Shown here: piece after piece, positions 32,503 through 52,626 of the stretch
Layout of the letters: each line of letters opens with the position of its first letter
How positions within the stretch are numbered: position 1 is the first letter of the stretch
DNA from: Cyanophora paradoxa CCMP329
Taxonomy: Eukaryota; Plantae; Glaucophyta
Direction: 5' to 3'
Length of the DNA: 64,000 nt
NCBI GenBank assembly: GCA_004431415.1
Contig: QPMI01000401.1
Location: 62,001 to 126,000, forward strand
The notes under the pieces: generated by a model
What the model was told of the DNA's origin: nothing
The model's database searches: none
The model's input: the letters and a program-made list of their open reading frames with translations, nothing else
Translations under genes and position numbers: made by a program

Positions 32503-32669
32503 AAAAAATGAGAGAGGACCTGATTCTGTGGCCCGCACCTCTTCACCACCCTCACTCCTCCAAACCACCCCAACCCACACACTCCAACGCCTTCCAACCC
32601 ACACACTCTTCCAATCCTTCGTTACGTCTACCCCACAACCTATCCAAACCAACCATCAAGCAACCGCTA
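32503..32669 (+). repeat. Element A left TIR, outer 167 bp
   Basis: Reverse complement of 54403-54569. Confidence 0.95.
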
Positions 32670-32860
32670 AGCTGAGCTGTGAGCATTACACCCAAAAATT
32701 ACCCCAATATAATTTGCCCCTTCAAGCAATATCCGCATGATTCCCAGTAACCCAATCCCCAATCTCAGTAAATCTCAGTAAGCCTCAGTCACAATCTATT
32801 TTATTTAATCGAAGTTATATCTAAAATCTAATCAATCGAAGTTATATGCATTACACCCAA
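32670..32860 (+). repeat. Element B left TIR (191 bp)
   Basis: Reverse complement of 43898-44088. Confidence 0.95.
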
Positions 32861-33123
32861 ATTTTAGCGCCTTTTATTTACGACATTCAGTAACAACTTT
32901 ACGATTCCCGACAATCGGAAAATATCACCACCCAATAAACCCATTTAATCGAGAGATTCCCGATGAAACCTACAACAATCGAGAGATTCCCGACAATTCA
33001 CCATCGGACAATCGATGAAATACCCATTTAATCGATTGAATCCATAAAAAACAACAACCACTAAACCATTCACAGTTACACCCGTTACACTTCCACATCT
33101 CCGATTGATTCACATTACACCCA

Positions 33124-33447
33124 TCACATTCGCATAAATTGCATCCAAGTAGCAGGATTAGCAATACTTACGTCTGATTCGGAAGACATACCTTTTTGGT
33201 AATTATAACAGAATTCACAAAGTAGTCCCTGAGACATTGGTTTGAGTTTTTCAGTATCTCCACAAATCATACAACAGTTTCGGGTTCCCATTCGTTCATA
33301 CATAGCATTTGCTTTTGCCTGTTGTGAATGTGTTAATTTCAATTCGCCGACGTTTTCATTTACCATAGAAACAACCGGACGTCCACTTTTAGCGCCGACG
33401 TATTCAGTCATATTACGATGTCGTTCACTTGCTTTTCTCTTACCCAT
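33124..33447 (-). CDS. Small Zn-ribbon protein (element B)
   Basis: 107-aa ATG ORF with CMIC...CEFC; preceded by the conserved AAAATTTGAC motif. Confidence 0.6.
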   Translation of the reverse strand: MGKRKASERHRNMTEYVGAKSGRPVVSMVNENVGELKLTHSQQAKANAMYERMGTRNCCMICGDTEKLKPMSQGLLCEFCYNYQKGMSSESDVSIANPATWMQFMRM

Positions 33448-33539
33448 CGTTATTACTACTTCTCAGATTCCTTTTAAACTTTGTCAAATTTTGCCCCGAT
33501 GCAAAAAATGATGTCCCAAAAAAATAACAATTAAAAACA

Positions 33540-33953
33540 ATGGATTACTACGGAGTTTACATGTTGGATATTGAAAATCCGGAATTACATAAAGATCTTC
33601 TCGAAAACAACGGGGCTGAATGGGATCCGGACACAAAATTATGGTTTGTCGAAGACGAAAATAACGAACTTTTAAAACAATTCCGTGTAAAACATCCGGG
33701 TGAATTCGACCAAGATTACGTTAAACAATTCCACCGCCAGTATTTCGTGGCTGATATCAAAGCAAGACTACCGGAGATTGCGGCAAAGCGTATATTTACT
33801 CAGTCATCATTACGCAAATATATTAAAAAACAAGGCGCTACATACGATCCTCAGTATCGTTTATGGTATGTTACTGATCCTGAAAGTGAGATATGCAAGA
33901 TCTTTAAGATGTTCACACTCGAACAGGTAGAAGATCTGAGAAGACCAAATTAA
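33540..33953 (+). CDS. Tandem DUF5710-like domain protein (element B)
   Basis: Two copies of GA(E/T)(W/Y)DPxx(K/R)LW(F/Y)V. Confidence 0.65.
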   Translation: MDYYGVYMLDIENPELHKDLLENNGAEWDPDTKLWFVEDENNELLKQFRVKHPGEFDQDYVKQFHRQYFVADIKARLPEIAAKRIFTQSSLRKYIKKQGATYDPQYRLWYVTDPESEICKIFKMFTLEQVEDLRRPN

Positions 33954-34717
33954 ACCGTTATTGTTGTGGGTTCATTACTAATTCTTATTGATTCTCTCTT
34001 TTTTATCGCTCGTCTCTTAACAAACTTCTTAAAGCCCTTCATATCATCATCTGTTAATATTGCCCGGTCTGTGTATACTTTTATATCATACCCTTGCAAT
34101 CCAGTTATGACTGTTTGGTAGTTATAACCCCACAGTCTATGCAATTCCTTGTAGGTCTTTTTATCAAGACCCCCATTATACTCATCATAAGCGCAATTGA
34201 ACTCTTTTTCGTTCCCAAGAATATTGAAAAATACTACGAACTCAACATTTCGACGAATGGTAGTAGAAATAGAGCATAAACGTTGAGTATTAATAATTAC
34301 TGTAATCGAATAATGACGGGCTGTCGTAATCAATTTAGAAAGGACAGCTGAATTATGCATATCCAAAGAAGAACCTATCATATCGTCTAAGATTATAACC
34401 AAATTATTACGCTTCTCATTATTCTCAATTCGTTTCTTTTGCATGCTAATGAGTTTCACTACTACATTATCGTCCCATTCCTCATAGATATTATCAGGAT
34501 GCGTTATATCTCTGAATTGACCAGTAAACGCAGTAGAACTAAAGACTACAATCTGATCGATCTTATCCCTCAGTTCATAAAGTAGATATTTGCAGTAAGT
34601 TGTCTTACCAGAATTGCTGCGCCCACATAATAAAAAACGCGTGCTTAATTTAACTGTTCTTGCAGGCTCAAACTCCGGGATGTCATTCAAATCAATATCC
34701 ATTCCTGTGTTATCCAT
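33950..34717 (-). CDS. A32-like genome packaging ATPase (element B)
   Basis: Walker A GRSNSGKT, Walker B IILDD, TTARHYSITVIINTQ, IRRN. Confidence 0.92.
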   Translation of the reverse strand: MDNTGMDIDLNDIPEFEPARTVKLSTRFLLCGRSNSGKTTYCKYLLYELRDKIDQIVVFSSTAFTGQFRDITHPDNIYEEWDDNVVVKLISMQKKRIENNEKRNNLVIILDDMIGSSLDMHNSAVLSKLITTARHYSITVIINTQRLCSISTTIRRNVEFVVFFNILGNEKEFNCAYDEYNGGLDKKTYKELHRLWGYNYQTVITGLQGYDIKVYTDRAILTDDDMKGFKKFVKRRAIKKRESIRISNEPTTITV

Positions 34718-34827
34718 TACAGTAATAAGATAAAAAACAAAATAAACCCCTTAGCGCATGCAAGGCATGCTTGTCATGCCGACCCTACTAATTTTGCGCT
34801 TCCTACTCTAACGAAAGAAAAAGAACT

Positions 34828-36054
34828 TTAGAAGTTCGAGACTTTCAGGGTAGAGATGTTGTAGCCATTGAGGACCATAACATTGTGTCGTAGGGCATAG
34901 ATATCAACCTGAACAGGAGCAGCATCAGTGCATCCCGAAACAGTGAGATCCATGTAACTGGAACTGCTGTTGAAGAAATCCTGGTAACCCATAACACTGT
35001 TCCGAAGCGAATCTTTTCCAGATTTGGAAAGAACGATTCCGTAAATATTTCCATTCTCGAATCCATAAGTAGTATTGCCAACAGTAACACCCTTGTAATG
35101 AGAAGGAATGTGATTGATAGCCGAGAGGAAACCAGAAATGGGTTTGTTGGAGATATCCAGGGAGCGATTGTTGTGGAAGATCTGGAACTGATCGATCTTA
35201 ACATCCGAAACATGACCACAGAAATCAGAGTGAGTGTAGGTGTTAAGTTTGTTCACCTCTCGAACTGTCATGAGAATCGAATGAACCAGACCAGAAACAT
35301 TAGCGAGTGTCACCTCAACCGATTCACCAGCATCAGCGGTTTTGAGCGCTCGTGTCTTCTTGTGGATGACCTCTGTGATCGGAATGCGAATGCCACCTTG
35401 TTCATTTGCCATTTTCAAAAGTGTCTCAGCCTCAGCCGAAGCGATGTTTACAAATTGACAGATCAGGGAGCAATCCGCAAATGTAACAGATCCACCAGCA
35501 GGAACTTTGACTATCCCAGCATCACGGAAATCAACCTCGATTGTTGGCATATCCGCCAGTGTGCATAGTGGGAAGTAAGCATCATCCCAGAAAGCAGCGG
35601 GAATTTTCACAATGTATTCCATAGCCTCATCTGTGCTTTCACGATCAAGTTCTTTGAAGTAACCAAGAGAAGCATACATGCTGCTCATGGTAGCATGATC
35701 ATTATCAATCAGAGCGTTAACAGTTATCCAGTCACCAGGGATGATATACTTGAAACCACCATGAACAAAGCGGACCTCATTAATATAGGAAGAACCACCA
35801 TTGGGGAGGGTGCAGGCTACACCACCACCAGTGGCAATCTTGAAATAGAGCGAAACACCAGCAAGGAGTTGCTTGCGAGGTAGATCAAAGTAAGCGGTAT
35901 TCTTAAAGCCAAAAGTATTGCCTCGGGGACGAACTTGCTCGAGGAATGGTTTGTACTTGGGGTTGGTTCCGATTTGGAGACCAGGGGATAGATAAATTTG
36001 ATCGGAACCGGGAGTTACGAGGAGTTCCTTAAGGGTAGTTCCAGTGAGTGCCAT
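34828..36054 (-). CDS. Putative double jelly-roll major capsid protein (element B)
   Basis: 408 aa, beta-strand-like pattern (FDLPRKQLLAGVSLYF, FPLCTLADMPTIEVDF), between ATPase and penton-like gene; most conserved gene between A and B. Confidence 0.8.
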   Translation of the reverse strand: MALTGTTLKELLVTPGSDQIYLSPGLQIGTNPKYKPFLEQVRPRGNTFGFKNTAYFDLPRKQLLAGVSLYFKIATGGGVACTLPNGGSSYINEVRFVHGGFKYIIPGDWITVNALIDNDHATMSSMYASLGYFKELDRESTDEAMEYIVKIPAAFWDDAYFPLCTLADMPTIEVDFRDAGIVKVPAGGSVTFADCSLICQFVNIASAEAETLLKMANEQGGIRIPITEVIHKKTRALKTADAGESVEVTLANVSGLVHSILMTVREVNKLNTYTHSDFCGHVSDVKIDQFQIFHNNRSLDISNKPISGFLSAINHIPSHYKGVTVGNTTYGFENGNIYGIVLSKSGKDSLRNSVMGYQDFFNSSSSYMDLTVSGCTDAAPVQVDIYALRHNVMVLNGYNISTLKVSNF

Positions 36055-36106
36055 CTCTTATGTTTAAAATACCAAAAGAAATTTTTAAAATGCTTTATTA
36101 AACAGA

Positions 36107-37006
36107 ATGACGCGTCATTACCTTAATATTGATTCCAGGGACCGAGATGATGGAACCCCAACGAACTTCACTTATAAAATTCCCCATGCAATCCAAAATG
36201 TGAGAGCCTGCAGAGTGACTAACTTTGAGATGTTCAATAACATTTACAATCTTAGCGAGAATGGAAGTTTGATTACAGGAACCTATGATGCTGGAGATGT
36301 AATTAAAACTAAGAATAACACTATTTCAAAAGGGACATATACTTCGGATAGTTTGGTGAATCTTCTAAATGCCAAACTAGCTTCACAAGTGTATGGTGCA
36401 GCAGGAACTACCTATACTCGCCATTTCTACGTTACATATGATCCTGTTACCATGTTTCTAAGGTTCATGTGCGATGCAACATTTACCCTCACCTTTGGAA
36501 GTCGGATCTTAGCAAACTTCCTTGGGTTTCCAGAGCGCAGACCTGACAGTTCAGAAAATGGTTACGCTTCTGCCCTGCTGGATTCACCTGTAACAGTTGG
36601 AGCTAATACTTATAATTACTACATTGACAGTGTTATACCGCTCGATCTTCTGTTCAACTCTTACATCCTTCTCCACGTTGACCCACTCAAAGGCAACTAT
36701 GTAAGCAAGAACACAAGCGATGATAAAGCCCTCGCAAAAATCGAGATTGATCAAACGGTAGGCAGTCTCTTAAAATATGATTCATCGAATAATTCCATGA
36801 TCCTGCATGAGCAAAACGGTTTGGTGGAAGTTGAAACGCTAAAAGTTCGTCTCACATACTGGAATGGTGCCGAAACGGATATTACCACTGATTGGTCGAT
36901 GACGCTTGAACTCATTACGGAAGATGATAAAGATCTGACAAAGAAAGCATTGAAGAATGTCATTAAAGAGTTGGAGGGACTCTACTTGCCGTTCTCACGG
37001 TCATAG
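36107..37006 (+). CDS. Putative minor capsid (penton) protein (element B)
   Basis: N-terminal LNIDSRDR...NFTYKIP...FEMFNNIYN and C-terminal LKVRLTYWNG...DWSMTLE pattern typical of PLV/NCLDV pentons. Confidence 0.75.
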   Translation: MTRHYLNIDSRDRDDGTPTNFTYKIPHAIQNVRACRVTNFEMFNNIYNLSENGSLITGTYDAGDVIKTKNNTISKGTYTSDSLVNLLNAKLASQVYGAAGTTYTRHFYVTYDPVTMFLRFMCDATFTLTFGSRILANFLGFPERRPDSSENGYASALLDSPVTVGANTYNYYIDSVIPLDLLFNSYILLHVDPLKGNYVSKNTSDDKALAKIEIDQTVGSLLKYDSSNNSMILHEQNGLVEVETLKVRLTYWNGAETDITTDWSMTLELITEDDKDLTKKALKNVIKELEGLYLPFSRS

Positions 37007-37042
37007 GAAATACTGTAGAATAAATTTGTCTCGATATTACAA

Positions 37043-37792
37043 ATGGCAACTCGAAAGACCCAGCCAAAGAATTTCTTAGCCAAACCAGTTGAGCAAGCGG
37101 AACCAGAACGGAAACAGTTTAAGAAATCGAAAGGAACCGCTGCATATGGAACTGGTGATCTCGATAAAAATGTTCACCAGACCATGAATGCTCACACAAT
37201 TGCGCTTACTTCAAACTCAAATGATGATAATGCCCTGGTTGACCAAGTCCCACTGAACCGCATGCCCGGAGCGAAACGAGGAATCAAGAAAGGGCAGTTC
37301 AAATCATCCACGAAGGACAAGGTTGCCTCATCATCGACACTGCTGAAACTGCTTGATGGTGGTGAGAGACTCTACTCAACCTATTCCGAGAAAGACCATC
37401 GCAACCGCTACTTTATTCGTTCAACCACTGGTGGACTGAAATCTGTGACATATCAGTATGCTAAGAGTCTTGTTGATGGTATTGCAGCAGAGACCAAAAA
37501 CGAAAACAAGATCAAGGAACAGCCAATCACAAAGGAAAAGGTGGAGAAGAAACCAGAGGTAACCCATGAAGTAATCCCTGAACCTGTTCATGTCGCAAAA
37601 GACTCACCAACAGAACTGATTGCGAAGACAATCGATTATCAAGAGTCCAACAAAACGGATTTGCCGGTTCTCAATAAATCAATCCTTCGGGTTGCCACTT
37701 CGCAGGCTGATCCAGTCAACTCAATTCCAAATGCTGCTCCAATGGTCTCAGGGTTTGCCAAGCTCGGTATTAAACCTGGATATCGCCGTTAA
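37043..37792 (+). CDS. Basic protein of unknown function, possibly virion core (element B)
   Basis: 249-aa Lys-rich ORF homologous to 53573-54175 (RYFI, GIAxETKxENKI, LPVxNxSILR, PMxSGFxKLG). Confidence 0.7.
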   Translation: MATRKTQPKNFLAKPVEQAEPERKQFKKSKGTAAYGTGDLDKNVHQTMNAHTIALTSNSNDDNALVDQVPLNRMPGAKRGIKKGQFKSSTKDKVASSSTLLKLLDGGERLYSTYSEKDHRNRYFIRSTTGGLKSVTYQYAKSLVDGIAAETKNENKIKEQPITKEKVEKKPEVTHEVIPEPVHVAKDSPTELIAKTIDYQESNKTDLPVLNKSILRVATSQADPVNSIPNAAPMVSGFAKLGIKPGYRR

Positions 37793-38155
37793 GGGACGGC
37801 TCACGCATCATTTCCGAATTAAAAAAATCTTGAACATTGTTAGCGCTACGTAACCAATCTTATCCCGTAGGCTCAAAACTTCTTCATTTTTATGGAGGCG
37901 TTGTAGAGCGAAGTGAAAATATCCATAGGTAAATCACTTTAATCACCTGTTCTACCGGGTTCAGTGGTAGAAACTTGCAGCCGACAAGTGAGCCTATTTG
38001 GTTTCGGTGGCTTTATCATTTTTCCAGCATCTTCTTTCAGAATTGGATGCTCTGCAATCGGGACCAAAATTTGACAGGAGTTTAATCGCTATATACAGAC
38101 AGAAAAACTACTTAAAGATTTCTTAACATATATTAAGAGAGTAGAAAGGGACAAA

Positions 38156-38413
38156 ATGCCAATCAGTGAGGCTCAGAAGCGTGCTACTTACCGTTATCGC
38201 AAAACTGAAAAAGGTCAGGAATATTTAAAAAAGTATAATGCGAAATTCGCAAAGCAAATGCGTGATTTATACCATACTGATGAGTGTTACAGAGCCATGA
38301 GAATCGTTGAGAGTTCCCAGCGTCTCTATGCTTCCAATGCAGTCTGCTTTGTGAAGTATCTCTATGGCGTCCCCTATTCTAACCGTGGTCGCAAATCGAA
38401 ATATGTCTGTTAA
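38156..38413 (+). CDS. Small basic helical protein, probably DNA-binding (element B)
   Basis: 85 aa starting MPISEAQKRATYRYRKTEKG; RDLYHTDECYR resembles RKLRHTNETYR in A's AT-hook protein. Confidence 0.65.
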   Translation: MPISEAQKRATYRYRKTEKGQEYLKKYNAKFAKQMRDLYHTDECYRAMRIVESSQRLYASNAVCFVKYLYGVPYSNRGRKSKYVC

Positions 38414-38654
38414 TCGTTTTTCTCAGCGCGATCTGCTCTGAGAAACCCGCGGGAACCGCGCTGGAGCCACAAATAAAATCATTCTGTTATTTTTAGAGTT
38501 CGATCATCGAGCCAACCCTTTGTTATTTTTATAAATGCCCTCGACTAAATTTATTTTGTCGAAGACTTTCGGTTTTGCCGGTAAAAATTGACGCGAGTAT
38601 AAAAGTATTTAAGGAAAACTTTTGTAGGTATATATTAATAGAGTGAACAAAGAA

Positions 38655-41600
38655 ATGCCTCGACCAAGTAATCGAATTTCGAAAAATTTGCAGGATGAGA
38701 TTCTTGGCTACTACATGCAAGCAAAAGTAGAAGACAAATTGACCCGAGAGCAGGATATCTATTTCTTGAGAGAATTTACTTTCAAAGCAATTAGAATTCC
38801 AAAGTTGATTGATATCAGAGATACACTGAGAGGTATCGTAGAGCCTCGTTTGTATCGCAAGCAAGAGAAGAAGGAGAAGAGGGCTGAGAGAGCCGCTAAG
38901 AATGTTGAGAAGCAGAACAAGAAAGCAGCCGAAGCAAAGAAGCGGAAGCGCTTTGATCGCAAGCAGAATAAGAAGGCTAAACGTTCCGCTCGTTCCCAGA
39001 AGAATGTGGAAAAGCAGCAAAGTAAGCAGTTCAAAGCGCTGGTAAGGAGAATCATAAGGGATATTGAGGCCCAGGATGGTGATACAGTCTCGCTTCGTGT
39101 GAGGTTTTACCGAATTCCTGAAGACTTCAATAACCTCCCAAACAACTACGATGTTGTTATCCACGAAGACACACCTTACATTGAAACACAAAAATCCGGA
39201 AAACGCGCATTGATGCTTTCCTGCCCCAAGCAAGTGCTGGTGAGATTGCTTGAACAGGTGCAAGAGGACTTTAATAAATTCCTTGCATTGTGGACTCTGA
39301 ACGAGATTGCTTCCTTCCTGATTTCTATTAGGCAAAGCAACCCTCGCAATCGAGACTATCAATTCGTTAAGGTTTTCACGAATGATGCGCCCAATGGATC
39401 AGACATCAAGTATCCAGAGGTGATGACAATCGAGGAGATTATTGTCAGCGATAACAAAACAGTATACCCTTTGAATGAACGAGTTCTGCGAGATGGGCAG
39501 GCTCCAAAAATCGTTTCTCGTTTCGTGAAATACACCCTCAATGGTCAGGCTAAGTGTGTGATGGACCAAATATGTCCCGATGATTCACTTACCATCAAAG
39601 ATTGTTTAATCGAAGCATTACATCAGGTTCTATGCAAAGGGTTTGAGTATGCCCGCAGCATCAAGAAGTATAAGAAGGTCAACTACTCAAAAGACTGGCT
39701 CTTTGCTCAGATCAAGGGATATGAACCTAAGCCTGATTCTGATTGGGGAGTGAGTTTTGATGAGCTTCTTCCTTTCTTGAAAAAGTGGCGCATCAGGTTC
39801 ATTGCAATTGGAAAGGATGACAAGGTTATTCATACTCTTTCCTTCAAACCGAATCGAACCAACTCTCACTTAGTTCCCGCAAGTGTTTATGTGCAGATTG
39901 CAAATGACCACGTTTATGTATTAAATAAGGATCTCAGTAAACTGGTTCGTTCTTTCAATGGAACTGGCGCCCGTGAAACCAAGAAGAGTATGGGTTCAGC
40001 AGCCATGAAATACAAGATCAAAACACAGTTCAACGATAACAGCTTCTTTGCTTACAACGAGGAGGATATCATCAAGATCATTGCCAGAGAGAAAGATAGT
40101 AGTTCTGAAAAAATTAAGATCACATACAACAAGCCGTTACTAGAGTTGTTGGGAAGCTTCCGAAAGGCTAATCACGAGGTTCACACTTCCATTACAGATG
40201 AGGGAACAATAACCTACATTCACTACACAATAGAGGATAAAGATGTAATTATCCTTCCACCAGGCAACATGGTGGATATGGAAAATATTGATGTGAACCT
40301 TGCAGATGATGCCCATCGCAAGTTGTTTGATGAGATGAGTCAGATGATGTATAGGGCGCTTATCAACAAACCCTACAAGAGCAAATATAATCCAGAAACA
40401 TATGCAGCATTTACTAAAGGGCAACAGAGTGCATTGACTGGGTTCTTTGGATCTGCCTCTGAGGTCCGAACAATGGTAGAGAACATTGCCTATGGATCCA
40501 TTGATACTCACAAGCTCGACATTTCCAAAGCATACACACACATCGTTTCGAAAGTGCTTAAGGTGTTTCCAGTTTTCAGTTCATTTGATAGATTCGAAAA
40601 AGTCAAAGTGTCTTGCAGCTCGGACATCGAAGACAATTCGTTCTATTCCGTGAAAGTGAAAGCCAAACACTTCAAAGCATTCAGAAATTATGGTGAGGCG
40701 AATACCTTGAATCAATACAAGAGGATTCTCGTCGATTCAAAGTATAACCTGATGTATGGTGAGGTTTTGAAAGAGTTTTACGAGGATATTAAGGATGACA
40801 TCAGCATTGAGGCAGTTCTAAGACCTTATCGGATTGCCGAGAATGTCACCTTGCAGGCTTTCAAGCAGTTGTATGAAAGTCAGCTTTCGACCAAGGAGAA
40901 GAAAGACATTGCCAACCATCACATTGGTCTATTTGGTAAGAAGTCCCAGCGAAAAGCAACCACCTACACCTTTTTCAATAAAAATGATGCTCTGAATTTC
41001 ATTGAAGAGAATGGAGGGACCCTGAAGTTTATAAGTTTCGATCAAGAGAAGCCAACACACACATCAGTTAAGAATGAGAAGGACATTAAATCGCCCATGA
41101 TTTGGTATGTGAACCAGGAAGAACAAGAACGGGCTTTCATTGATGGTTTCCTGCCAATGCAGTGCGTGATTTACTCCACCATGCGAGGCATCATGTATCG
41201 CCTATGCAAGAAATTGCTCTCTGAGGGAGTGGGAGTCCTTGCAATCAAGACCGATGAGCTGACAATCGATAGACCATATCCATTCGAGCAGTTTGACCGA
41301 AACCTATTCGAGAACACTGGAAAGTTTGATGTGAAGCCAGCAAACATGAACTCGATAACCCACAGTAAGAGGACTTCCAAAAAACCAAAGAGCCACATGA
41401 TCACATTTGATCGACTCAAAACTCGTTCCAAACCTTTCATCAATGTTGAAAAGATTGTTCACAAGGTTCACAAGTTCCAGGATGAGTATGACCTCCCAGC
41501 AATCGTAAATGCTTTGGATGGGCAAGGTAATGTGCTGATTAAAGGAGTGAAACCGGGAACTGGTAAGACTACTTTGGCAAAGGCAATGGCCAAGAAGTAT

Positions 41601-42839
41601 GGTAAGAAATGCTTGTTCGTTGCGCCTACTAATAAGAGATGCAAGGATTTGCGAATGGAACTAAAAGCAGAGTGGGGGCAGGATGCTCCTGAGGTGATGA
41701 CTATTTATCGAGCCTTGAATTTGAATGTTGATGATGAGAGAATGAAGGGAAATGTTGGGAAGAAGGTTTCGGAATTATCTAAGTACGATTGCTTTGTTAT
41801 TGATGAGATCTACCAGTTTGAGATTAGGGAATTGGAATCTCTGTGCGATGTGATGACTGTGCAGTTCCCAGACAAACTCTACATCGCAACAGGCGACCCC
41901 TACCAGAACCCACCCATCCAATTCATAACAGTCAATCAACGAGATTACTACAACAAGATCTTCGATAGACTTTTCAAGAACGAGGTTTACCTGCAGGTTG
42001 GAAAGCGTCATAAACTGGCTGCAGATCAGAAGAAATTCGACCAGTTATGGGAGGACTTATTCAGGACTGAACTACCAGTTTCTATTGCTGCCAGACGATT
42101 GGGCTTGAAAGTAGTTGATACATTGGAGAAGGGTGATATCTCAGTATGCAATTCAAACCGCAAGTGTGCAGAGGTGAACAACAAAATGCATAAAATGATT
42201 CATGGAGAGGATCCTGTATATAAGACAGGTGTGGAGCTGATTGCAAAGGTGCGAATGACAACAAGTGAGGGCATCATTCAGCGGGGCTTTGTTTACGAAG
42301 TGGTCGAATACAAAGCCAAGGAAATTCTCACTCTCAAAGACATTGATTCGGGTGAAGTGCATACTCTAAAAAGCGAAGATATCAAGTATTTCGCATTGAC
42401 CCATGCTTTCACCTGTCACATCATTCAGGGTGACACAATCAGGGATTCTCGTGTTGTAATTCACGAGACTGGGTCCCCATATGTTACTGCTGAGTGGTTC
42501 TATGTTGCAGCAACTCGAACCCAGAATCTCTCAGATACTGTGATTTTCGTTGATAAATCCGAGGCAGCCACAATGGTGAAAACGAAGGAGGATCAAGCTC
42601 AGAAAATCGATTCCTACAAATCCCAAGACAAACAAGCCAATCGGGAGTTCTCCTTGGCAGAGTATGTTGATTGGGACTGGTTCAAAAAGCAGTATGGGAA
42701 GCAATTGGGGCGATGCAGAAGGTGCTTTGATATTATGGATTTCGAAGAAGCCACTGTTGATCGGGAGAACAATGCTATCGCTCACATTTCTCGAAACTGT
42801 TTCTTGTCACATTGTAGGTGTAACTGTTCAGCCCAGTAA
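38655..42839 (+). CDS. Degenerate protein-primed PolB fused to SF1 (Pif1/RecD-like) helicase and C-terminal HNH-like domain (element B)
   Basis: PolB-like motifs LDISKAY (A), KDIANHHIGLFGKK (B), AIKTDEL (C); helicase GVKPGTGKT, FVAPTN, VIDE, ATGDPYQNPP, AFTCHIIQGDT, FYVAATR; C-term CRRC...TVDRENNAIAH...N...CN; first ATG at 38655. Confidence 0.88.
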   Translation: MPRPSNRISKNLQDEILGYYMQAKVEDKLTREQDIYFLREFTFKAIRIPKLIDIRDTLRGIVEPRLYRKQEKKEKRAERAAKNVEKQNKKAAEAKKRKRFDRKQNKKAKRSARSQKNVEKQQSKQFKALVRRIIRDIEAQDGDTVSLRVRFYRIPEDFNNLPNNYDVVIHEDTPYIETQKSGKRALMLSCPKQVLVRLLEQVQEDFNKFLALWTLNEIASFLISIRQSNPRNRDYQFVKVFTNDAPNGSDIKYPEVMTIEEIIVSDNKTVYPLNERVLRDGQAPKIVSRFVKYTLNGQAKCVMDQICPDDSLTIKDCLIEALHQVLCKGFEYARSIKKYKKVNYSKDWLFAQIKGYEPKPDSDWGVSFDELLPFLKKWRIRFIAIGKDDKVIHTLSFKPNRTNSHLVPASVYVQIANDHVYVLNKDLSKLVRSFNGTGARETKKSMGSAAMKYKIKTQFNDNSFFAYNEEDIIKIIAREKDSSSEKIKITYNKPLLELLGSFRKANHEVHTSITDEGTITYIHYTIEDKDVIILPPGNMVDMENIDVNLADDAHRKLFDEMSQMMYRALINKPYKSKYNPETYAAFTKGQQSALTGFFGSASEVRTMVENIAYGSIDTHKLDISKAYTHIVSKVLKVFPVFSSFDRFEKVKVSCSSDIEDNSFYSVKVKAKHFKAFRNYGEANTLNQYKRILVDSKYNLMYGEVLKEFYEDIKDDISIEAVLRPYRIAENVTLQAFKQLYESQLSTKEKKDIANHHIGLFGKKSQRKATTYTFFNKNDALNFIEENGGTLKFISFDQEKPTHTSVKNEKDIKSPMIWYVNQEEQERAFIDGFLPMQCVIYSTMRGIMYRLCKKLLSEGVGVLAIKTDELTIDRPYPFEQFDRNLFENTGKFDVKPANMNSITHSKRTSKKPKSHMITFDRLKTRSKPFINVEKIVHKVHKFQDEYDLPAIVNALDGQGNVLIKGVKPGTGKTTLAKAMAKKYGKKCLFVAPTNKRCKDLRMELKAEWGQDAPEVMTIYRALNLNVDDERMKGNVGKKVSELSKYDCFVIDEIYQFEIRELESLCDVMTVQFPDKLYIATGDPYQNPPIQFITVNQRDYYNKIFDRLFKNEVYLQVGKRHKLAADQKKFDQLWEDLFRTELPVSIAARRLGLKVVDTLEKGDISVCNSNRKCAEVNNKMHKMIHGEDPVYKTGVELIAKVRMTTSEGIIQRGFVYEVVEYKAKEILTLKDIDSGEVHTLKSEDIKYFALTHAFTCHIIQGDTIRDSRVVIHETGSPYVTAEWFYVAATRTQNLSDTVIFVDKSEAATMVKTKEDQAQKIDSYKSQDKQANREFSLAEYVDWDWFKKQYGKQLGRCRRCFDIMDFEEATVDRENNAIAHISRNCFLSHCRCNCSAQ

Positions 42840-43897
42840 TGGAGAATATTCTATCATACAAAAAATACAAACAGAAGCTCATTAGTGAAGGGAAGGAATT
42901 TGATGAGGCGGAACTGAGAAACAAGTATAAGAATTCCGAACTGCATCAAATTTTCAAGAAGCCTAGGAAAAAGACTACGTTTTTAAGAATAGTTGCCCAG
43001 CCATACTCATTTCAGGTTGATGTCATGTTTTTCAGAAAGTTTAAGACAGCAAATTATGGATACATTAAAGCGCTTAGTTTCATTGACATTCTAAGTAGAA
43101 AGGCATTTGTGTATGCTTTCAAGACCAGCGAAGAGATTCCGGGAATACTTAATAAATTCAAGGGCGAAGCAGGTAAGGTTGTAGGATTGGCAGGGGATAA
43201 TGAGTTTTCCAGTGCGGTTTATCGAACTTGGTGCAGTGAAAATGGTGTCGAATTGTATACAGATGTTGCGAAAGAAGATCACATTTCTGCTGGGAATAAA
43301 CTTGGGATAATCGATCGATTCACTCGAACCTTCAAACAATACATGAACAAACTCATGGTCTCGAGGAATACTTCGAAGTGGGTCGAATTAATCCCAGATG
43401 TGCTAAAGGCTTACAATAACTCGCCTCATTCATCACTGAACAATGATTCCCCAAACCAAGTGTTTGCAAGTCCACAGAAGCAAATGTTTATTTTCCTAAA
43501 AACCACCAAGCATAACATGGATGTTAAAGAGAATCAACCCGATAAAATCAAACCAGGAGATACTGTAAGAGTTTTAGAGGAGAGAGGTGCATTCTCAAAG
43601 GAAGGCCCCAGGTTCAGTCAGAAGATTTACAAAGTAGCTGGGAAAGATGCTAATCGATTCAAGGTGCTTGAAGATAATGGAGATGATGCAGAGGAATTAA
43701 AGAGACGTTTTAAGCAACAAGAGTTACAGAAAGTGAAACGAGATGAGATAATGAAAATTCCACAGCAAATGAGGATTCAAGCTGTAAAGAAAACAAACAC
43801 AGTGAATCGAAAAGTTGCAAAAGAGGGAATCAAACCAAATCGCAGCAAAGTTGTTAGAAAAAGGTATCAATTAAGAAGCGGATTAACTAAAAGGTAG
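42839..43897 (+). CDS. Retroviral-like (rve) integrase (element B)
   Basis: FQVDVMF, FIDILSRKAF, GDNEF, GIIDRFTRTFK, YNNSPHSSL, KPGDTVRV; start overlaps the upstream stop (TAATG) and the stop abuts the right TIR. Confidence 0.92.
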   Translation: MENILSYKKYKQKLISEGKEFDEAELRNKYKNSELHQIFKKPRKKTTFLRIVAQPYSFQVDVMFFRKFKTANYGYIKALSFIDILSRKAFVYAFKTSEEIPGILNKFKGEAGKVVGLAGDNEFSSAVYRTWCSENGVELYTDVAKEDHISAGNKLGIIDRFTRTFKQYMNKLMVSRNTSKWVELIPDVLKAYNNSPHSSLNNDSPNQVFASPQKQMFIFLKTTKHNMDVKENQPDKIKPGDTVRVLEERGAFSKEGPRFSQKIYKVAGKDANRFKVLEDNGDDAEELKRRFKQQELQKVKRDEIMKIPQQMRIQAVKKTNTVNRKVAKEGIKPNRSKVVRKRYQLRSGLTKR

Positions 43898-44088
43898 TTG
43901 GGTGTAATGCATATAACTTCGATTGATTAGATTTTAGATATAACTTCGATTAAATAAAATAGATTGTGACTGAGGCTTACTGAGATTTACTGAGATTGGG
44001 GATTGGGTTACTGGGAATCATGCGGATATTGCTTGAAGGGGCAAATTATATTGGGGTAATTTTTGGGTGTAATGCTCACAGCTCAGCT
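43898..44088 (-). repeat. Element B right TIR (191 bp)
   Basis: Reverse complement of 32670-32860. Confidence 0.95.
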
Positions 44089-44094
44089 CCGCTA

Positions 44095-44352
44095 GGTAGT
44101 ATCTAACGTCTAGTCCGATCGATCTTGCAAAAGATATAGCAGTAATTTTAGGCGGACCCCAAAGCGCTGGTCTCGGAATAATCTTCAACATCATCTAGAC
44201 GTTAATTGTGTGTATTTCGAATCTAAAAAACAAAGAGGTTTCAAGGGTTATGCTACACGTAATTACTATATCATCGGAATCTAATTACATACTCGAGTTC
44301 AGGTTCTAGCTAGACGCTAATTATTCCCACCGATGACGTAGTCCAAGTTTAG
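44095..44352 (+). repeat. Element A left TIR, inner part displaced by element B
   Basis: Reverse complement of 54144-54402 apart from a 1-bp homopolymer difference (C4 versus G5). Confidence 0.93.
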
Positions 44353-44455
44353 GTTCAGGTGGTTTATCTTATTTTGTCTTAAAGAGATCTCTATCCAATA
44401 TTGCTATGTAAAGTTGCGTTTAAAATAATCAAAAAAATTGTGATATATACTTCCA

Positions 44456-47400
44456 ATGGACGTTACCCAGAATAATGCAGCGACTCGGCGCTTCCGGTCA
44501 GCCCGTATTAAAGACCAGATCGAAGCGCTCACGACTTCATTGTACAATCTACGTGTCATACATGGTGCCTTCAAAAATAAATTGCTAAGAATTACAGCGC
44601 AAGGATCGAGAACAAGATATACAACGTTGGAAAAATACGCTTCACTATTGAACGAACTATCTCGACTTCCTAGACCAACGCGTCCTGTGTCAGGTCGTCG
44701 ACTAGAGCTAGCGATCGCAGAGGGGCAGGCAGAGATCGTCCGTGGCTTTGCCGAGCTGCCTGAGGTTGACGTCGGAGATGATGTTCAAATCAACGACGGG
44801 ACTACGACTACAGCGCTTGACGGGCGATATGCAGAGTGGAAATATCAGCTACCACGCGGATCAGGACGTGTAACATCAATGCAAGCCAGATTTGAAAACA
44901 ACGAACTTTTCAAACAGAATGCTATATCATTCGTAAGCGCCCAGGTAAATCTTGCAGAGACGTCAAGAATGGGCATTGCACTACAAATCTCTGGATTGGG
45001 TGTCTACAGAAAGCCAGAGACAGATTCTACGATCGCTATCGTTATTGAACATCGTCGTTTCGATCGCATCGAACCAGGGACAAGCATTGAGGCGGCCTTG
45101 CGTTCACAGCTCGAAGAATTAGACATGATCTCGGAAGAGAAAAGCAGGGATTCCTCAGTATTTGACACGTGGGTGTATCTGGTCTTTAAAACTGTGCGCT
45201 ATTTCCGAAGGATTGGTGGCCGTGGCCGAGGCTTTGTACTGCCAAAATGGCTCTCAGACAAGCACGCGCTTATCAATATAAATGCACCGAACAACGAGTG
45301 CTTTAAATACGCAGTCCTTTCTGCTCGCAATCCATTGGGCGAAGGTGTTGATTCTCGGCATGCAGGAAACTACCGCCAGCACGAGACATCGCTGGACTGC
45401 TCAATGCTTACATATCCGACACCGCTTGACTCGAGGATGTTCACCAAATTCGAGCAAGCAAATAACGTCAAACTCTGCGTTTATACAACTGCTCTAGATA
45501 AGCAGGATATCATACCAATCCATATCAGTGCTGCGAGAGACGCAATCCCAATACTGTATGTGCCGGCTGGGGAGGGAAACGATGTTGGGCATTACCTCTG
45601 GATTAAGAGCGTCTCACGACTGTTCCGAAAGAACGAATCAAATGCAAAGCACTATTGCTTAGCCTGCCAGGTCGGTTTTAGCTCAGATCAAGCATTTGAA
45701 AATCATCTTAAATATGACCGCTGTCTCGAACGCGATGAACACGCACGAGATGTTCTGCCCAAAAAAGGAGCTCACATCCAGAAGTTTATTAACTATGAGT
45801 ACACAATCCGCCAACGTCTGGTCGGATATGCTGATTCAGAGACTATTACAATGCCGATTCCCTGCATTAGTGGAAAGACCGAAAAAAAAGGTTTGCATGT
45901 GATTGCTTCAGTCGGCTGTCTGGTTGTATCTTCGAAAGGCGAACAGTTTTCATTTAAATGTATGGGTTCCGAGAATGAAGACTGTGCTGATAAGTTCGTA
46001 AAATGGCTTGACGAAATGGAACCACAATTTAGAGAACTTCTCAAAGCAAGTGTACCAATCCAGATGAATCCGGAAGAGGAACAGTGTTTTCAAACAACGA
46101 CAGACTGTTATATGTGCAAAAACACGTTCAAAGATATCAAAGACAAGCACCGTGATCACTGTCATGATACAGGTAAATACATTGGAGCAGCCTGTCGTGC
46201 TTGCAATCGCCGCCGTGCAAAATCTGCTGCTGTTCCTATATTCTTTCATAATGGTCGTGGATTTGACTTTCACCTGTTCGTGAGAGCAATAGCATCTGGC
46301 AAAAACCGCCGTTCAGCAGCTTGGGCTGAGTTTCAAGCACATGTCGAAAGTGAGTTTCAAAGCAAGTACGGTGGACGTGAGATGACCCCAGAGCAGAAAA
46401 AGAAGGTTAAGAAGGGGCTCGAACGCCGGCTCCGCCCGCAGAGTCTCCTTTCGATCAAATTTGATCAAACCTTTCAGAATAGCGAGAAGATATCACAGTT
46501 TAAGTATGGAATTTATGTACTTCGTGATTCGATGCAACATTTGAATGCTAGTTTGGATGATCTAGCGAAAGCGGTCCCAGCGGAGAAGAAGAAGATCACG
46601 CGCACAATGTATCCGGATGATACTAGATTCGAGTTGATGACAAGCAAGGGGATATATCCATATAGCTATATATCAAGCTGGCAACGTTTTCAAGAAACAG
46701 AACTACCTGTACGTCGATACTTTAAGAACGAACTAAAACAAAAGAAATGCTCAAAAGACGAGTACGCACATGCTCAGATCGTTTGGAGAAAGCTTGCATG
46801 TAGAACGATATCAGACTATACTATGGAATATATGAATACTGACATTTCGTTACTTGCCGATGTATTTGAAAACTATCGTGATACATGCATGGAAACGTAT
46901 GGATTAGATCCAAGCTATTTCATATCATCACCAGGATTCGCTTGGCAAGCTGCTCTTAAACGCACAGGAATTAAGCTTGAGCTTTTTCACGAGGGACAAC
47001 AAGATATGTATAGATTCATAGAATCAGGAATTAGGGGTGGCATCAGCATGATATCAAAGAGATACGCTAAAGCTGATAACGAGTTCCTGAAACACGTAAA
47101 AGACATGAGTTCAAGAGTGATTGCAAAGAATAAAAAGAAAGCAGCAAAAGCAGCGACAATTTTAAAGAAATTTGGAAAATATACGCATGCTGATGAATCA
47201 GCAACCCAGATTGAATGTGTGCAAAACTACGAAAAAACAGGCAAAGAATCGTGGCTGATGTACCTTGATGCGAATAATCTGTATGGCGTTGCTATGAAAC
47301 AAAAACTCCCCACTGGAGGTTTCCGCTGGGAAAAACTCGATCAAGATGTTGATGCTATGCAGTTCGTTGAAAACCTTGACGCTGATGGTCCTCGTGGCTA

Positions 47401-48582
47401 TGCTCTAGAAGTTGATATGTACATGCCTGACCATCTCCACGATGATTTCTCAGATTATCCACTAGCTCCTGAACGAATGTGCGTGTCCATAGATCATCTA
47501 TCGAAACAACAGCAGGATATGATTAACAACGAAAAGCTTACTTCAGTCGAAAGAACCCCAAAATTGGTTCCAAACCTGTTGCCAAAGAAGAATTATGTTG
47601 TTGATGGGCGTTTGCTTAAGCTTTATACTACACTGGGAATGATTGTAACCAACATCCACCGTGTTTTATCGTACGAACAAAGTGCGTGGCTGAACGATTT
47701 CATCGATCTTAATACAAGTGAACGCAAGCGTGCTGATCACAAATACAAACAGGATCTCTTCAAGTTAATGAATAACAGTGTATTCGGAAAGACGATGGAG
47801 AACGTGAGAAAACACTGTTTCTCCGAGCTTGTTACATCTGGTGATCGTTTGGCAAAGATAAACAGCGAACCAAATCGGTTGAAGCAGGTGGTGATGTACG
47901 AAGAGAACCTTGTATTCGTTTCCAAGCGAAAAAGTGAGTATAATTTAAATAAACCAATTTACTGTGGATTTGTCATTCTCGAATTGTCCAAGCTGCACAT
48001 GTATCGCTTCTACTATCAGGTGCTCAAACCGCTTTGGGGTCATCGGCTTAAGCTACTTGGAACTGATACTGACAGTCTCATCATCGAGGTTCGCACCAAA
48101 GATATCTATGCTGATTTACGCTCAATCAAGCATGAGCTGGATGTTAGCGACTACCCAGAGACACATCGATTCTTTGATGGCATGACAGCCGATGAGGTTC
48201 GAGCTCTACGATCGATGGGGAAAACTCCGGGATTATTCAAGGATGAGCTTCATGGTCTACAAATGACAGAGTGGATCGCTAACCGGCCGAAATCTTACTA
48301 TTATTCGCGTGAAGATTCCACAGATAAGCAGGTGTGCAAAGGTATTCAAAAAACATATTACAACAGACTCACAAGGGATGTATTCCTCCGGTGTGTCTGC
48401 CCAAAAAAGGAGAAAAACAATCGTATGATATCAAAGGAATTCTCGGTTTCCGTTCGAAACGACATGAAATATATCTGCAAAATACCTCTCGTCAAGCGTT
48501 GCATCCGCTAGATACGAAGCGTTTTCTAGATAATGATAAAATCAACACCTGGGCTATTGGGCATTACAAAAATCGTGTCTGA
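44456..48582 (+). CDS. Protein-primed family B DNA polymerase (element A), with a -1 frameshift near 48405
   Basis: Exo I GYADSET, Exo II FHNGRGFDFH, Exo III YMNTDISLL, motif A YLDANNLYG, B KLMNNSVFGKT, C GTDTDSL; endonuclease VII-like insert CYMC..RDHCHDTGKYIGAACRACN; conserved C-terminus (FRSKRHEIY..ALHPLDTKRF..TWAIGHY) lies in the -1 frame ending at 48582. Confidence 0.93.
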
Positions 48583-48591
48583 ATAATAAGG

Positions 48592-49494
48592 ATGTACACT
48601 CTAACAGCGCCACCTGGTGCATGGCAAATTGATGTATTATTTATTGGGAGATATCGCCTGTTTGCGGCCGTAGAAATTGCAACCCGTTTCGCTATCGTTC
48701 GAAAAATAGAAACATTCAAACAACTTCCAAAAATGATTGAGCAACTGCCAGGGATCTGGGGTTTCTCCGCCGACAACGGTTTTAACACAGCTGCGATTCG
48801 GGCAATGGTCGAAGAGAACTCGTTGAAAATACACACTGATGTTGCCAAAGATGACCACATTTCTAAAGGTAACAAACTTGGAATTATCGACAGGTTCGCT
48901 AGGACATTGCGAGCACTTATCCAAGCTGACACTGAAGCACGTGGATCACCGCATTTCCTCTCACGTTTGCCGGCAATTGTCAAGGCGTACAATGAGACAG
49001 CCCACAGTGCATTTGGCGAGGAGCGATCACCAACGTGGATGCGTGAAAATACACAGGTTGCCGAACAGCTTCACCAAGTGCGACAGCGACAGAACGATAT
49101 TGAACGAGAGAACACAAATATGCCTAAACCTGGCACGGAGGTGCAGATCCTTGAGCCAAAGAGCAGTGTTTTTGCGAAGGGTCTGGCAAAACCAAGCAAA
49201 GAGACGTACATAGTTGCTGGCGCTGATAAGAACCGCGTTAGGTTAATTACAAAGCAAGGTGTGGAAATTTCTAGGCGTGTTAAACCATCTGAAATACGTC
49301 AACCTCGTGATCTCCCTGATCAAACACGAATCGAAAAAGAAGAAGTGAAAATGCGACAGCAGAGACGATTGAGACGCGAGGGATTGATCGAAACGAAAAA
49401 ATACAGCGGCCAAAACCGGAAGGATCGAGAGCTCAAGAAGCTTGAGATTGCAGGAGAGCCAAAGCTTAGAGCTGGTGCTAAGCAACGTCTTTAG
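48592..49494 (+). CDS. Retroviral-like (rve) integrase (element A)
   Basis: WQIDVLF, SADNGF, TDVAKDDHISKGNKLGIIDRFARTL, YNETAHSAF; clearly homologous to the B integrase. Confidence 0.88.
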   Translation: MYTLTAPPGAWQIDVLFIGRYRLFAAVEIATRFAIVRKIETFKQLPKMIEQLPGIWGFSADNGFNTAAIRAMVEENSLKIHTDVAKDDHISKGNKLGIIDRFARTLRALIQADTEARGSPHFLSRLPAIVKAYNETAHSAFGEERSPTWMRENTQVAEQLHQVRQRQNDIERENTNMPKPGTEVQILEPKSSVFAKGLAKPSKETYIVAGADKNRVRLITKQGVEISRRVKPSEIRQPRDLPDQTRIEKEEVKMRQQRRLRREGLIETKKYSGQNRKDRELKKLEIAGEPKLRAGAKQRL

Positions 49495-49786
49495 CAAGAC
49501 ATCTACGCGAAATAGCATTTCTGTGGTACTCCCGAATACGATCAGGATTTTCAGCTCGATATTTTGCTGTGATGGCAAGCTGTTTCAAACGATATGTTTC
49601 GTTCGTATGACGTAGTTTACGATTCCGTTCAGCATTCTTTCTGCGTCGCTCTGCTAAAATCTCCGGTGTTACCTCTATTGGCTTACGACCCTTCTTCTTT
49701 GGTTCATATGAATCCATTGTCAAAAGACGAACCTTTGGCGGACGTCCACGGCCACGCTTTACAGCAGTATAATCTGCAGAACTCAT
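49478..49786 (-). CDS. AT-hook DNA-binding protein (element A)
   Basis: KRGRGRPPK and KKKGRKP motifs followed by a basic helix; ATG at 49786. Confidence 0.7.
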   Translation of the reverse strand: MSSADYTAVKRGRGRPPKVRLLTMDSYEPKKKGRKPIEVTPEILAERRRKNAERNRKLRHTNETYRLKQLAITAKYRAENPDRIREYHRNAISRRCLAKDVA

Positions 49787-49808
49787 TGTTCGCTTATCTC
49801 TCAATAAT

Positions 49809-50450
49809 ATGAGACATAAATCCTTTTATAACAAATTAGCGCGACTTTTTAGGCTTAAAGATAATGCAATCTGTAAATGTAACGAAAAAGTCGCAGACAA
49901 GCAGCTCGCTGCGCAGATGGAGGTCGTCATTTCTGATGTACCAGAGGGTGCTGCGTTGATTCCGTTAATGGGCATTCGCAATCGACGCAAAGTCATCGTC
50001 GCCTACGCTCTTGTGTCACAGGATGATGCTGAGCGTGTGCTCGGGTTCCGCTGGAGTTTGAAAAAGGGATATGTCAGAGCCAAGATCAATGGAAAAACCG
50101 TGTATTTGCATAATTTCATTGTTGGGAGACTTGAGAATGGGTTGACCGTTGATCATATTAATAATAACAAACTTGATAATAGACGCAAAAATTTGCGGCT
50201 TGCAACAGCTCGTCAGCAGAATCTTAACCGTGGTCAGCTGCGAAACAACACATCGGGTTTCATTGGTGTTTACTTCGATCAGCGAGATGGTAAATGGAAG
50301 GCAGAATATCATCTAAATGGCCGCAAAAAGACCATCGGTCGGTTTCAAACAGCAGAGGCTGCAGCTCATGCACGCGATGCATATGCCTTAGAACACACCA
50401 GCGAAGAGGACAAGCCATTCTTGCGGCTGAACTTCCCAGTTACCGTTTAA
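49809..50450 (+). CDS. HNH endonuclease with C-terminal AP2 domain (element A)
   Basis: TVDHINNNKLDNRRKNLRLAT (HNH) and NTSGFIGVYFDQRDGKWKAE...IGRFQTAEAAAHARD (AP2). Confidence 0.9.
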   Translation: MRHKSFYNKLARLFRLKDNAICKCNEKVADKQLAAQMEVVISDVPEGAALIPLMGIRNRRKVIVAYALVSQDDAERVLGFRWSLKKGYVRAKINGKTVYLHNFIVGRLENGLTVDHINNNKLDNRRKNLRLATARQQNLNRGQLRNNTSGFIGVYFDQRDGKWKAEYHLNGRKKTIGRFQTAEAAAHARDAYALEHTSEEDKPFLRLNFPVTV

Positions 50451-50483
50451 ATGAACGTCTTAAATGGCGTCATTATTTTTTAA

Positions 50484-50876
50484 ATGGAACTCGAATTCGA
50501 AACGGTAGAGGAAGAGTTGGATCTTGAAAATCCATGGCCTGGTAGGACTCAACTCTCACCAAGTCACTGCATCAGCTTCGGCATTTTCAAGGGCGCAAGC
50601 TATCTGTGGATCGCATCAGCACGTCCAGAATATACCGCTTGGTTGCTCAGACAGTCTTGGCTACCAGCTTTTGACCGGGCCGCTTTCTTGCGTGCACAAA
50701 GCGCAATAGAGCCGAAAAATCTCCAGAAGATTTATCAACAGAGTAGACGCGGTCCACGGTCGCGGCTTCAAATATCAAAACCTGATACGAATGACCCCAT
50801 TCAAGGAAAAGACGCATTAAAACTGCTCGACTCGCTCCGGCGTTGTATTCGGCAAAGACGCAATCGAACTCTTTAA
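50484..50876 (+). CDS. Small protein with DUF3820-like motif (element A)
   Basis: ISFGIFKGASYLWIASARPEYTAWL resembles the FGKYKG..YxxW motif; 3' part overlaps the ATPase antisense. Confidence 0.5.
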   Translation: MELEFETVEEELDLENPWPGRTQLSPSHCISFGIFKGASYLWIASARPEYTAWLLRQSWLPAFDRAAFLRAQSAIEPKNLQKIYQQSRRGPRSRLQISKPDTNDPIQGKDALKLLDSLRRCIRQRRNRTL

Positions 50877-51351
50877 TATTCGATAGAATCGACGAAAAGC
50901 ATACATATTCGCAATTTCGCCGAATCGTCGGACTAATGCCACATAGACGTTGTGTCGTGATAAAGAGCGATATATTGTAATGTCTTCCGCTAGTAAAAAG
51001 CTTTTGCATTAATCGGTCACTGTGGACGTTTACTAGGTCATTATCAAGCAAGTCATCTAAAACAATTGCTATTTTTCGATCATCTTTCTTGCGTCGTCTT
51101 TCTTTTTGACGTTCTAAAAGTTCTTCAACCAAAACTGTATCCCATTCTTCATAAATATTGCTCTTGCGAGTGGTATCGTCCCACTGTTCTGTAAATGCCG
51201 TTGTGCTGAAGACGTAAATATCGTCTAGCTGATTTGCTACAGCATTTAATACGTGTTTTACGTAGGTGCTTTTGCCCGAGTTGGTGGGGCCGACAAACAA
51301 GAACCGTTTAGGAAGTTTTACTTCTGCTGGATCAAACAATTTGATATCCAT
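50647..51351 (-). CDS. A32-like genome packaging ATPase (element A)
   Basis: GPTNSGKS, IVLDD, TSGRHYNISLFITTQ, IRRN; homologous to the B ATPase. Confidence 0.92.
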   Translation of the reverse strand: MDIKLFDPAEVKLPKRFLFVGPTNSGKSTYVKHVLNAVANQLDDIYVFSTTAFTEQWDDTTRKSNIYEEWDTVLVEELLERQKERRRKKDDRKIAIVLDDLLDNDLVNVHSDRLMQKLFTSGRHYNISLFITTQRLCGISPTIRRNCEYVCFSSILSNIKEFDCVFAEYNAGASRAVLMRLFLEWGHSYQVLIFEAATVDRVYSVDKSSGDFSALLRFVHARKRPGQKLVAKTV

Positions 51352-51352
51352 T

Positions 51353-52582: not shown

Positions 52583-52626
52583 TTGATATTATATTACAGA
52601 ATATTTTCACGTATATTGTTGTAAAG

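Follow-up and report, generated by a model that had tools for sequence, protein, structure and literature searches.

Can a family B DNA polymerase (PolB) that has no recognisable exonuclease motifs, and in which one motif-C aspartate is replaced, still copy the element that encodes it? The question is raised by a 64,000-nucleotide stretch of the Cyanophora paradoxa CCMP329 assembly (contig QPMI01000401.1, positions 62,001 to 126,000; here called the window, to whose first letter all coordinates refer), in which an integrated polinton-like virus, element B, is nested in an outer element, A. Element B encodes a fusion protein in which an N-terminal region, a vOTU-like protease domain, a protein-primed PolB (pPolB) palm, a superfamily 1 (SF1) helicase and an HNH-like tail follow one another. 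This protein almost certainly belongs to the pPolB-S1H or Tlr1-like helicase family, and it is a fresh example of that published architecture, not a new system. We consider it probable that the fusion is the all-in-one replicase of element B.

Domain architecture of the fusion

The open reading frame (ORF) runs for 1394 codons from its ATG without an internal stop. Its parts are as follows.

38655..42839, forward strand: pPolB-S1H ('Tlr1-like helicase') replication polyprotein of element B, 1394 aa
38655..39575, forward strand: N-terminal region, residues 1-307, with a basic, charged stretch and a domain at the terminal-protein position, placed there after PMC11161782
39576..39944, forward strand: vOTU-like protease domain, with Cys317 (39603-39605) and His419 (39909-39911)
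39945..40454, forward strand: conserved spacer from the vOTU His to the palm, colinear with homologue L005 and without exonuclease motifs
40455..41324, forward strand: protein-primed PolB palm, with Asp622, Lys750/Asn754/Gly758 and Asp867
41487..42554, forward strand: SF1B helicase (Pfam AAA_19, AAA_30, Viral_helicase1 and UvrD_C_2)
42603..42836, forward strand: HNH-like, likely zinc-binding tail, with Cys1354/1357, His1386/Cys1389, Asn1381 and Asn1390

Every motif named in the first-pass annotation, an earlier account of this DNA made from its sequence, was found in the numbered translation. Its domain reading (vOTU-like dyad, PolB palm, SF1 helicase, HNH-like tail and no exonuclease) stands, with the Cys of the dyad assigned by position only. 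The helicase is the sole region of the protein recognised by Pfam, and the significance of the remaining motifs rests on alignments with homologues. The order of the domains matches the TP-vOTU-PALM-S1H-HNH order of PMC11161782 and PMC5499653, which argues for a replicase. The length of the protein lies within the 1,000-1,400 aa of pPolB-S1H proteins, which carry an SF1B helicase in their C-terminal part.

The helicase, at approximately residues 945-1300, was retrieved with AAA_19 (E 8e-9) and Viral_helicase1 (E 1e-5), has its Walker A motif at about 966-973 and contains a complete SF1 motif set. An eight-row profile of the helicase and tail (A8) found its best PDB matches in RecD (E 2e-8), RecD2 (2e-7), Dda (5e-7) and Pif1 (1e-3), and with these as the best solved relatives the helicase is placed in SF1B, as reported for the family in PMC5499653. 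Comparison of the fusion with PHROGs gave nothing beyond P-loop matches.

In the replicase reading, the vOTU-like domain would cut off the N-terminal primer protein, and synthesis by the palm would begin at the terminal repeats and proceed along the linear genome without proofreading. The SF1B helicase would open the duplex ahead of the palm, and the adjoining integrase would insert the copies with 6-bp duplications. Every catalytic step of this scheme is one that we infer.

Integrity and selection

At least half of the words of the stretch were present in 19 of the 24 listed runs, all under one organism label. No RNA run was among them, and a single 259-nt contig of depth 2 in X20, a run guessed to be of RNA, was left aside. 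One and the same variant of the ORF is found in the main contigs of three runs, and its presence in contigs of all three DNA-type runs (3/3) ruled out an assembly artefact as its source. The differences listed for the main contigs of the other DNA runs from codon 130 on, a set of 13 that leaves out minor-contig rows and the repeated first 90 codons, comprise nine silent and four non-silent changes. The silent share of 9/13 exceeds the expected 0.22 (p 3e-4), with a rough ratio of non-synonymous to synonymous rates (dN/dS) of 0.12 that ignores transition bias. The fusion thus appears to be under purifying selection, and a pseudogene was ruled out by the intact frame together with the silent excess. 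No listed difference alters a catalytic residue.

In three runs, the fusion had about 6, 10 and 12 times the contig depth of the host flank, and the capsid genes had still more. This fits a multi-copy family, depth itself not being a copy number. The first ~90 codons with the sequence upstream of them (38565-38930) had approximately two to five times the contig depth of the remaining gene, and several contigs leave the common sequence at 38859-38926; this N-terminal start may be common to sister families that continue into different downstream replicase modules. In runs X2 and X4, contigs of high depth connect 42179 with 43193 and 43248 with 43652, the sides being short; they possibly represent a deleted or related family in which the end of the helicase and a portion of the integrase are lacking. 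A joint in X2 that passes over B was rejected as proof of a B-free copy of A, the intact right repeat of A yielding the same joint.

Homologues of the fusion

No homologues of the fusion were returned by word-based protein searches, in the phage collection, the viral contigs or the metagenome contigs. Searches of prokaryotic genomes, in overlapping samples, matched 1/401, 1/401, 2/401, 2/283, 0/401 and 0/3 genomes. Only two genomes ever matched, G235 with a best E value of 2e-30 and G514 with eight matches, and their contigs look eukaryotic virus-like and are probably misbinned. Locus L005 (G235:C3) holds a whole fusion gene, broken across several frames, next to an integrase-like frame. The homologue pieces are approximately 24-34% identical to B.

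Two pieces of L005 aligned with B beyond chance: residues 412-757, from His419 through motif A, and residues 745-794, with motif B (0/300 shuffles reached the score in each case). The first also beat its shuffles against the polymerase of A, in a different region and with a score of 66 versus 132 for B. Among the seven aligned pieces, three failed to beat all shuffles, namely the L005 N-terminal piece (273/300 reached the score), L011 (23/300) and L015 (4/300). Among the pieces covering the respective site, His419 was found in 2/2, the motif A Asp in 1/1, the motif B Lys/Asn/Gly in 2/2, and a motif C with Lys followed by the second Asp in 3/3; the motif B Tyr position holds Phe or Ile. The putative catalytic His, motif A Asp and second motif C Asp are kept in these covering pieces. 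The likeness of the motifs makes the 'degenerate' motif C a trait of the family and not decay of the B copy.

Loci L001-L003 have the integrase alone in common with B, and L001 carries a canonical pPolB. In G514 (L008-L015), the helicase or tail is followed by a GIY-YIG-like frame, recognised by eye and without Pfam support, and then by an integrase.

The polymerase palm

Of the catalytic residues of the palm, motif A keeps Asp622 and motif B keeps Lys750, Asn754 and Gly758, with Ile757 at the usual Tyr position. In motif C, Lys865 replaces the first Asp and Asp867 is retained. It had been proposed that two acidic catalytic positions survive, and these are Asp622 and Asp867. The palm motifs are separated by inserts of 128 residues (A to B) and 117 residues (B to C) in the numbered translation. 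Residues 290-930 scored 0.91-0.92 in the Atlas with clusters bearing DNA_pol_B_2, sharing 181-188 features; the domain is present in 14-45% of the members of these clusters, one of which is mostly Preplasmiviricota. Since 4-10% of shuffled proteins attain 0.9 on the Atlas scale, the match counts as support and not proof. The PDB sequence search returned no match for the palm region. A single-sequence model of the fusion had a pLDDT (the score predicted for the local distance difference test) of 31, which says nothing for or against its folds.

The absence of visible exonuclease motifs, also remarked on in the first-pass annotation, is reflected in the distance from the vOTU His to motif A, which is 203 residues in B versus 559 in A. 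The canonical polinton pPolB features, an exonuclease and both motif-C Asp residues (1204 and 1206 in A), are present in A and not in B. The spacer that remains in B is conserved: positions 88-213 of profile A6 matched L015 (E 4e-15). It had no Pfam or PDB sequence match, and it is possibly an exonuclease stump with a pre-palm linker.

The family was originally read differently. In PMC5499653, where the fusion with its lost exonuclease and C-terminal HNH was described, the palm was called inactivated, with motif 4 and the exonuclease lost and motif 3 mutated. Following this view, the palm of B would be catalytically dead and serve as a scaffold or DNA clamp, and B would be copied by its helicase together with a host, giant-virus or A polymerase. 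The Lys at the first motif-C Asp and the Ile at the motif-B Tyr agree with such a loss, as does the lack of a silent-site excess in the palm, and B is nested in an element that has a complete pPolB. However, both metal-binding Asp residues are kept in B and in the covering homologue pieces, and B has terminal repeats of its own, unrelated to those of A. The same authors withdrew the inactivation in 2024 (PMC11161782, Krupovic et al. 2024), describing, from polinton-like viruses and transpovirons, TP-vOTU-PALM-S1H proteins that carry an HNH at the C terminus. There an active polymerase is predicted, and mavirus, pipolin and other PolBs are noted to be without the same first motif-C Asp. Experiments on the pipolin enzyme piPolB showed that of the motif-C carboxylates only the second is required and that piPolB is a proficient replicase (PMC5695915). 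We therefore regard a dead palm as quite unlikely. There is a good chance that the palm of B is an active polymerase, as would follow from the dispensability of the first motif-C Asp.

A residual activity limited to priming had been suggested earlier. The palm would then only start chains on the terminal protein, leaving elongation to another polymerase. The absence of the exonuclease and the position of the helicase close behind the palm could mean that the parts needed for processivity are reduced. Against this, piPolB uses the same carboxylates for priming and elongation (PMC5695915), and a fused 5'-3' helicase fits elongation, as in the PolA-S3H and AEP-S3H fusions (PMC11161782). The suggestion found no support, piPolB without the same Asp being a proficient replicase and B having no other polymerase. 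We consider it very unlikely; a working polymerase without proofreading is more likely than one that only primes.

The N-terminal region and the vOTU-like domain

Between residues 1-307 and the N-terminal piece of L005 there was no significant similarity (273/300 shuffles reached the score). No named match to a terminal-protein-like domain upstream of the vOTU was found in the Atlas or by homologue comparison, and residues 130-460 gave unnamed eukaryotic Atlas clusters only (scores 0.88-0.91). Judged by its position, the N-terminal domain would, by a slight leaning, be the one that primes.

The vOTU-like domain is better anchored at its His than at its Cys. The His419 motif aligned in both homologues that cover the site (2/2), and the core at residues 362-396 matched L015 (BLAST E 5e-5). 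The vOTU region had no PDB sequence match. A seven-row model of the domain is too poor to speak for or against the fold (pLDDT 44); in it, a helix begins at Cys317 and His419 sits on the final strand, the arrangement of the published vOTU description (PMC11161782). The polymerase of A (44456-48511) has Cys282, His379 and motif A Asp938.

Could the polymerase and helicase work while the Cys/His pair is not an active protease, with the whole protein staying on the genome end? This overlaps with the replicase reading and differs in the protease step. The match of Cys317 is positional only and no OTU fold was recovered; uncleaved pPolBs also exist, as proposed for bidnavirids and some mitochondrial plasmids (PMC11161782). 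On the other hand, the Cys lies 92-102 residues upstream of the His throughout (102 in B, 97 in A, 94 and 92 in the two homologues), and the low-confidence model places both residues where the published vOTU has them. In PMC11161782 the vOTU Cys and His are both conserved and self-processing is proposed. We judge an inactive protease to be unlikely, and for the domain itself we lean a little towards protease activity and self-cleavage.

Several observations weigh against the replicase reading as a whole. In pairing Cys317 with the Cys of the homologues, the alignment that puts the two together ranked only 4-8 of ~1370 possible placements, and 1990-2000 of 2000 whole-protein shuffles reached the score; a homologue-only profile of the Cys half missed B. 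The proposed match between the dyad regions of B and A was not borne out by pairwise alignment (BLASTP best E 0.32). A Foldseek search with the models (mean pLDDT 31 and 44) gave nothing at E <= 0.001, so that no fold was confirmed. In the palm, Ile stands at the canonical PolB Tyr position of motif B, with Phe and Ile in the homologues. Eight of the nine silent differences fall in codons 345-553, and the palm has a single difference, a non-silent one at codon 741. Since the silent changes cluster outside the palm, they support the gene as a whole and not its active site. The homologue pieces, moreover, come from two genomes and are closer to each other than to B, and most are broken or ended by contig edges, which leaves few independent points.

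The HNH-like tail

The tail of B aligns with L012 and L014 (0/300 shuffles reached the score) and contains the two conserved Cys/His pairs, with His1386 where the homologues carry Cys. It had no Pfam HNH match. Arg1370 stands at what we take to be the general-base His position, assigned from the general HNH pattern and not from a structure, and Arg is found there in 4/4 homologues as well. Given this replacement of the catalytic His in B and all four homologues, the tail is likely nuclease-dead and probably not an active homing nuclease. The motifs suggest a tail that is likely a zinc-binding domain without nuclease activity, for which, on balance, we expect a DNA-binding role. The HNH label itself is taken from PMC5499653 and PMC11161782 together with the general HNH motif pattern. 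The Arg is one small addition to the published description, and the alignment figures of these two papers may already show it.

A more specific role can be put forward only tentatively: in this lineage the tail, instead of a parasitic homing nuclease, would be a domesticated, nuclease-dead zinc finger (Arg in 5/5) that targets the replicase to the terminal repeats, and the spacer a shrunken, structural exonuclease. If true, this would make the fusion a distinct sub-architecture, of which the window would hold an intact and selected copy next to a sister element that has a related capsid gene and a canonical polymerase, and B beside A would be a natural side-by-side test of both enzymes.

Comparison with known systems

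The interpretation given in the first-pass annotation is largely right, and it is already published (PMC11161782). The fusion has been described as common, being found in many eukaryotic genomes (PMC13215967). Like the Tlr1-like helicases (PLV-Bnat of Bigelowiella, TvV-S1, Tetrahymena Tlr1 and the transpovirons), B has an N-terminal extension, a putative vOTU dyad, an SF1B helicase, an exonuclease-less palm that keeps motifs A and B and has lost the first motif-C Asp, and a C-terminal tail that resembles an HNH. The elements that carry these proteins are, like B, linear with terminal inverted repeats, and Tlr1 shares with B an rve integrase, capsid genes and a packaging ATPase. B is nonetheless divergent in sequence, with no match to these proteins in word-based protein searches. 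It also differs in the ~180 conserved residues between the vOTU His and the palm, and in its HNH-like tail, where Tlr1 ends in GIY-YIG. The Arg at the HNH general-base position of B sets it apart from the homing endonucleases that the papers call such tails.

In pMVRE groups 2 and 3 (PMC13215967), which are endogenous in eukaryotes, a truncated pPolB that retains the palm is joined by an SF1 helicase, as in B. The full, polinton-type pPolB of A has the same motif order as B and a similar Cys/His dyad spacing (97 versus 102); it keeps the exonuclease and both motif-C Asp residues and has no helicase, the opposite of B. Mavirus pPolB is without most of the exonuclease and is accompanied by a separate SF3 helicase, whereas the helicase of B is fused (PMC11161782). 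In OmPLV of Oxyrrhis marina, an SF1 helicase and a pPolB also share one ORF, of ~1,500 aa, but with the opposite domain order, a full exonuclease, no vOTU found and an independent origin (PMC12721341). Pipolin piPolB has its first motif-C Asp replaced as in B, yet is active; it keeps the exonuclease, primes without a protein and is bacterial, and so is a precedent for the active site of B only (PMC5695915).

No biochemical test of any pPolB-S1H protein was found in the literature, most subscription journals lying outside the search. The B copy is a convenient candidate for questions about polymerisation by the exonuclease-less palm and release of a terminal protein by the vOTU. The pair of B and A is a further clear example of elements that share a capsid module while their replicases turn over. 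The importance of the locus is modest, the architecture and both functional hypotheses being already in print.

Elements B and A and their surroundings

The two elements and the remaining genes of B that bear on its assignment are these.

32670..44088, no strand: element B, 11.4 kb, G+C content 0.41, identical 191-nt terminal inverted repeats (32670-32860 and 43898-44088), 6-bp target-site duplication
32503..54569, no strand: element A (outer), 426-nt terminal repeat, 6-bp target-site duplication, full pPolB 44456-48511, integrase, ATPase and putative capsid genes
42839..43897, forward strand: rve-type integrase of B, weak Pfam rve_3 match (E 0.008), its start overlapping the replicase stop
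33950..34717, reverse strand: A32-like packaging ATPase of B, Pfam Pox_A32 E 3e-14
34828..36054, reverse strand: putative major capsid protein of B, labelled from size and context, 63% identical to that of A

With its terminal inverted repeats, 6-bp target-site duplication, packaging ATPase and integrase, element B is an integrated polinton-like virus. The ORF list and Pfam show no replication gene or polymerase in B besides the fusion. Among target-site duplication lengths of 3-10, only 6 fits, and it does so exactly at both elements, whose terminal repeats are perfect or nearly so. The perfect repeats and target-site duplication of B suggest a recent insertion, which split the left 426-nt terminal repeat of A and may have immobilised A. 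Both elements lie in a low-G+C island (0.41-0.43 versus 0.64-0.67 in the flanks). The ATPases of B and A (the latter Pox_A32 E 2e-11) are 44% identical and the rve-like integrases 32%; the putative major capsid proteins have 408 and 409 aa, and that of B had no match above the cut-off in Pfam, PHROGs or PDB.

Nesting of B in A was set aside as a novelty, nested elements having been reported before. Polinton-like viruses and virophages nested in this manner are described in bioRxiv 10.64898/2026.07.28.741278, and tandem elements that have homologous capsid modules but differ in their replicases in bioRxiv 10.64898/2026.10.13.758929.

A number of smaller features were recorded in both elements. 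The small B gene at 33540-33953 (forward strand) encodes two DUF5710 repeats (Pfam E 9e-9). The third catalytic residue of rve integrases is usually Glu. The B integrase has Asp at this position (Asp61, Asp120, Asp159), as do the A integrase (48592-49494) and those of L001-L003; the integrases beside L005 and L012 have Glu. Within the pPolB of A lie an insert resembling endonuclease VII (Pfam E 1e-6, residues 547-587) and, at residues 398-419, a C2H2 zinc finger; A also encodes an HNH-AP2 protein (49809-50450).

In the host flanks, a 793-nt direct repeat (29568-30358 and 63051-63843) is 99.4% identical over copies 33.5 kb apart. Contig depth is raised at 30336-32336, immediately left of A, so a host repeat may have been the insertion site of A. 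Splicing of an RNA-type contig across 27001-27537 marks the host as a eukaryote. The high G+C content of the flanks, taken with an aspartate-semialdehyde dehydrogenase, which animals are not known to have, points to an alga or protist. Part of the gene for this enzyme lies at 6770-7636 (reverse strand; two segments, one open frame, E 3e-14).

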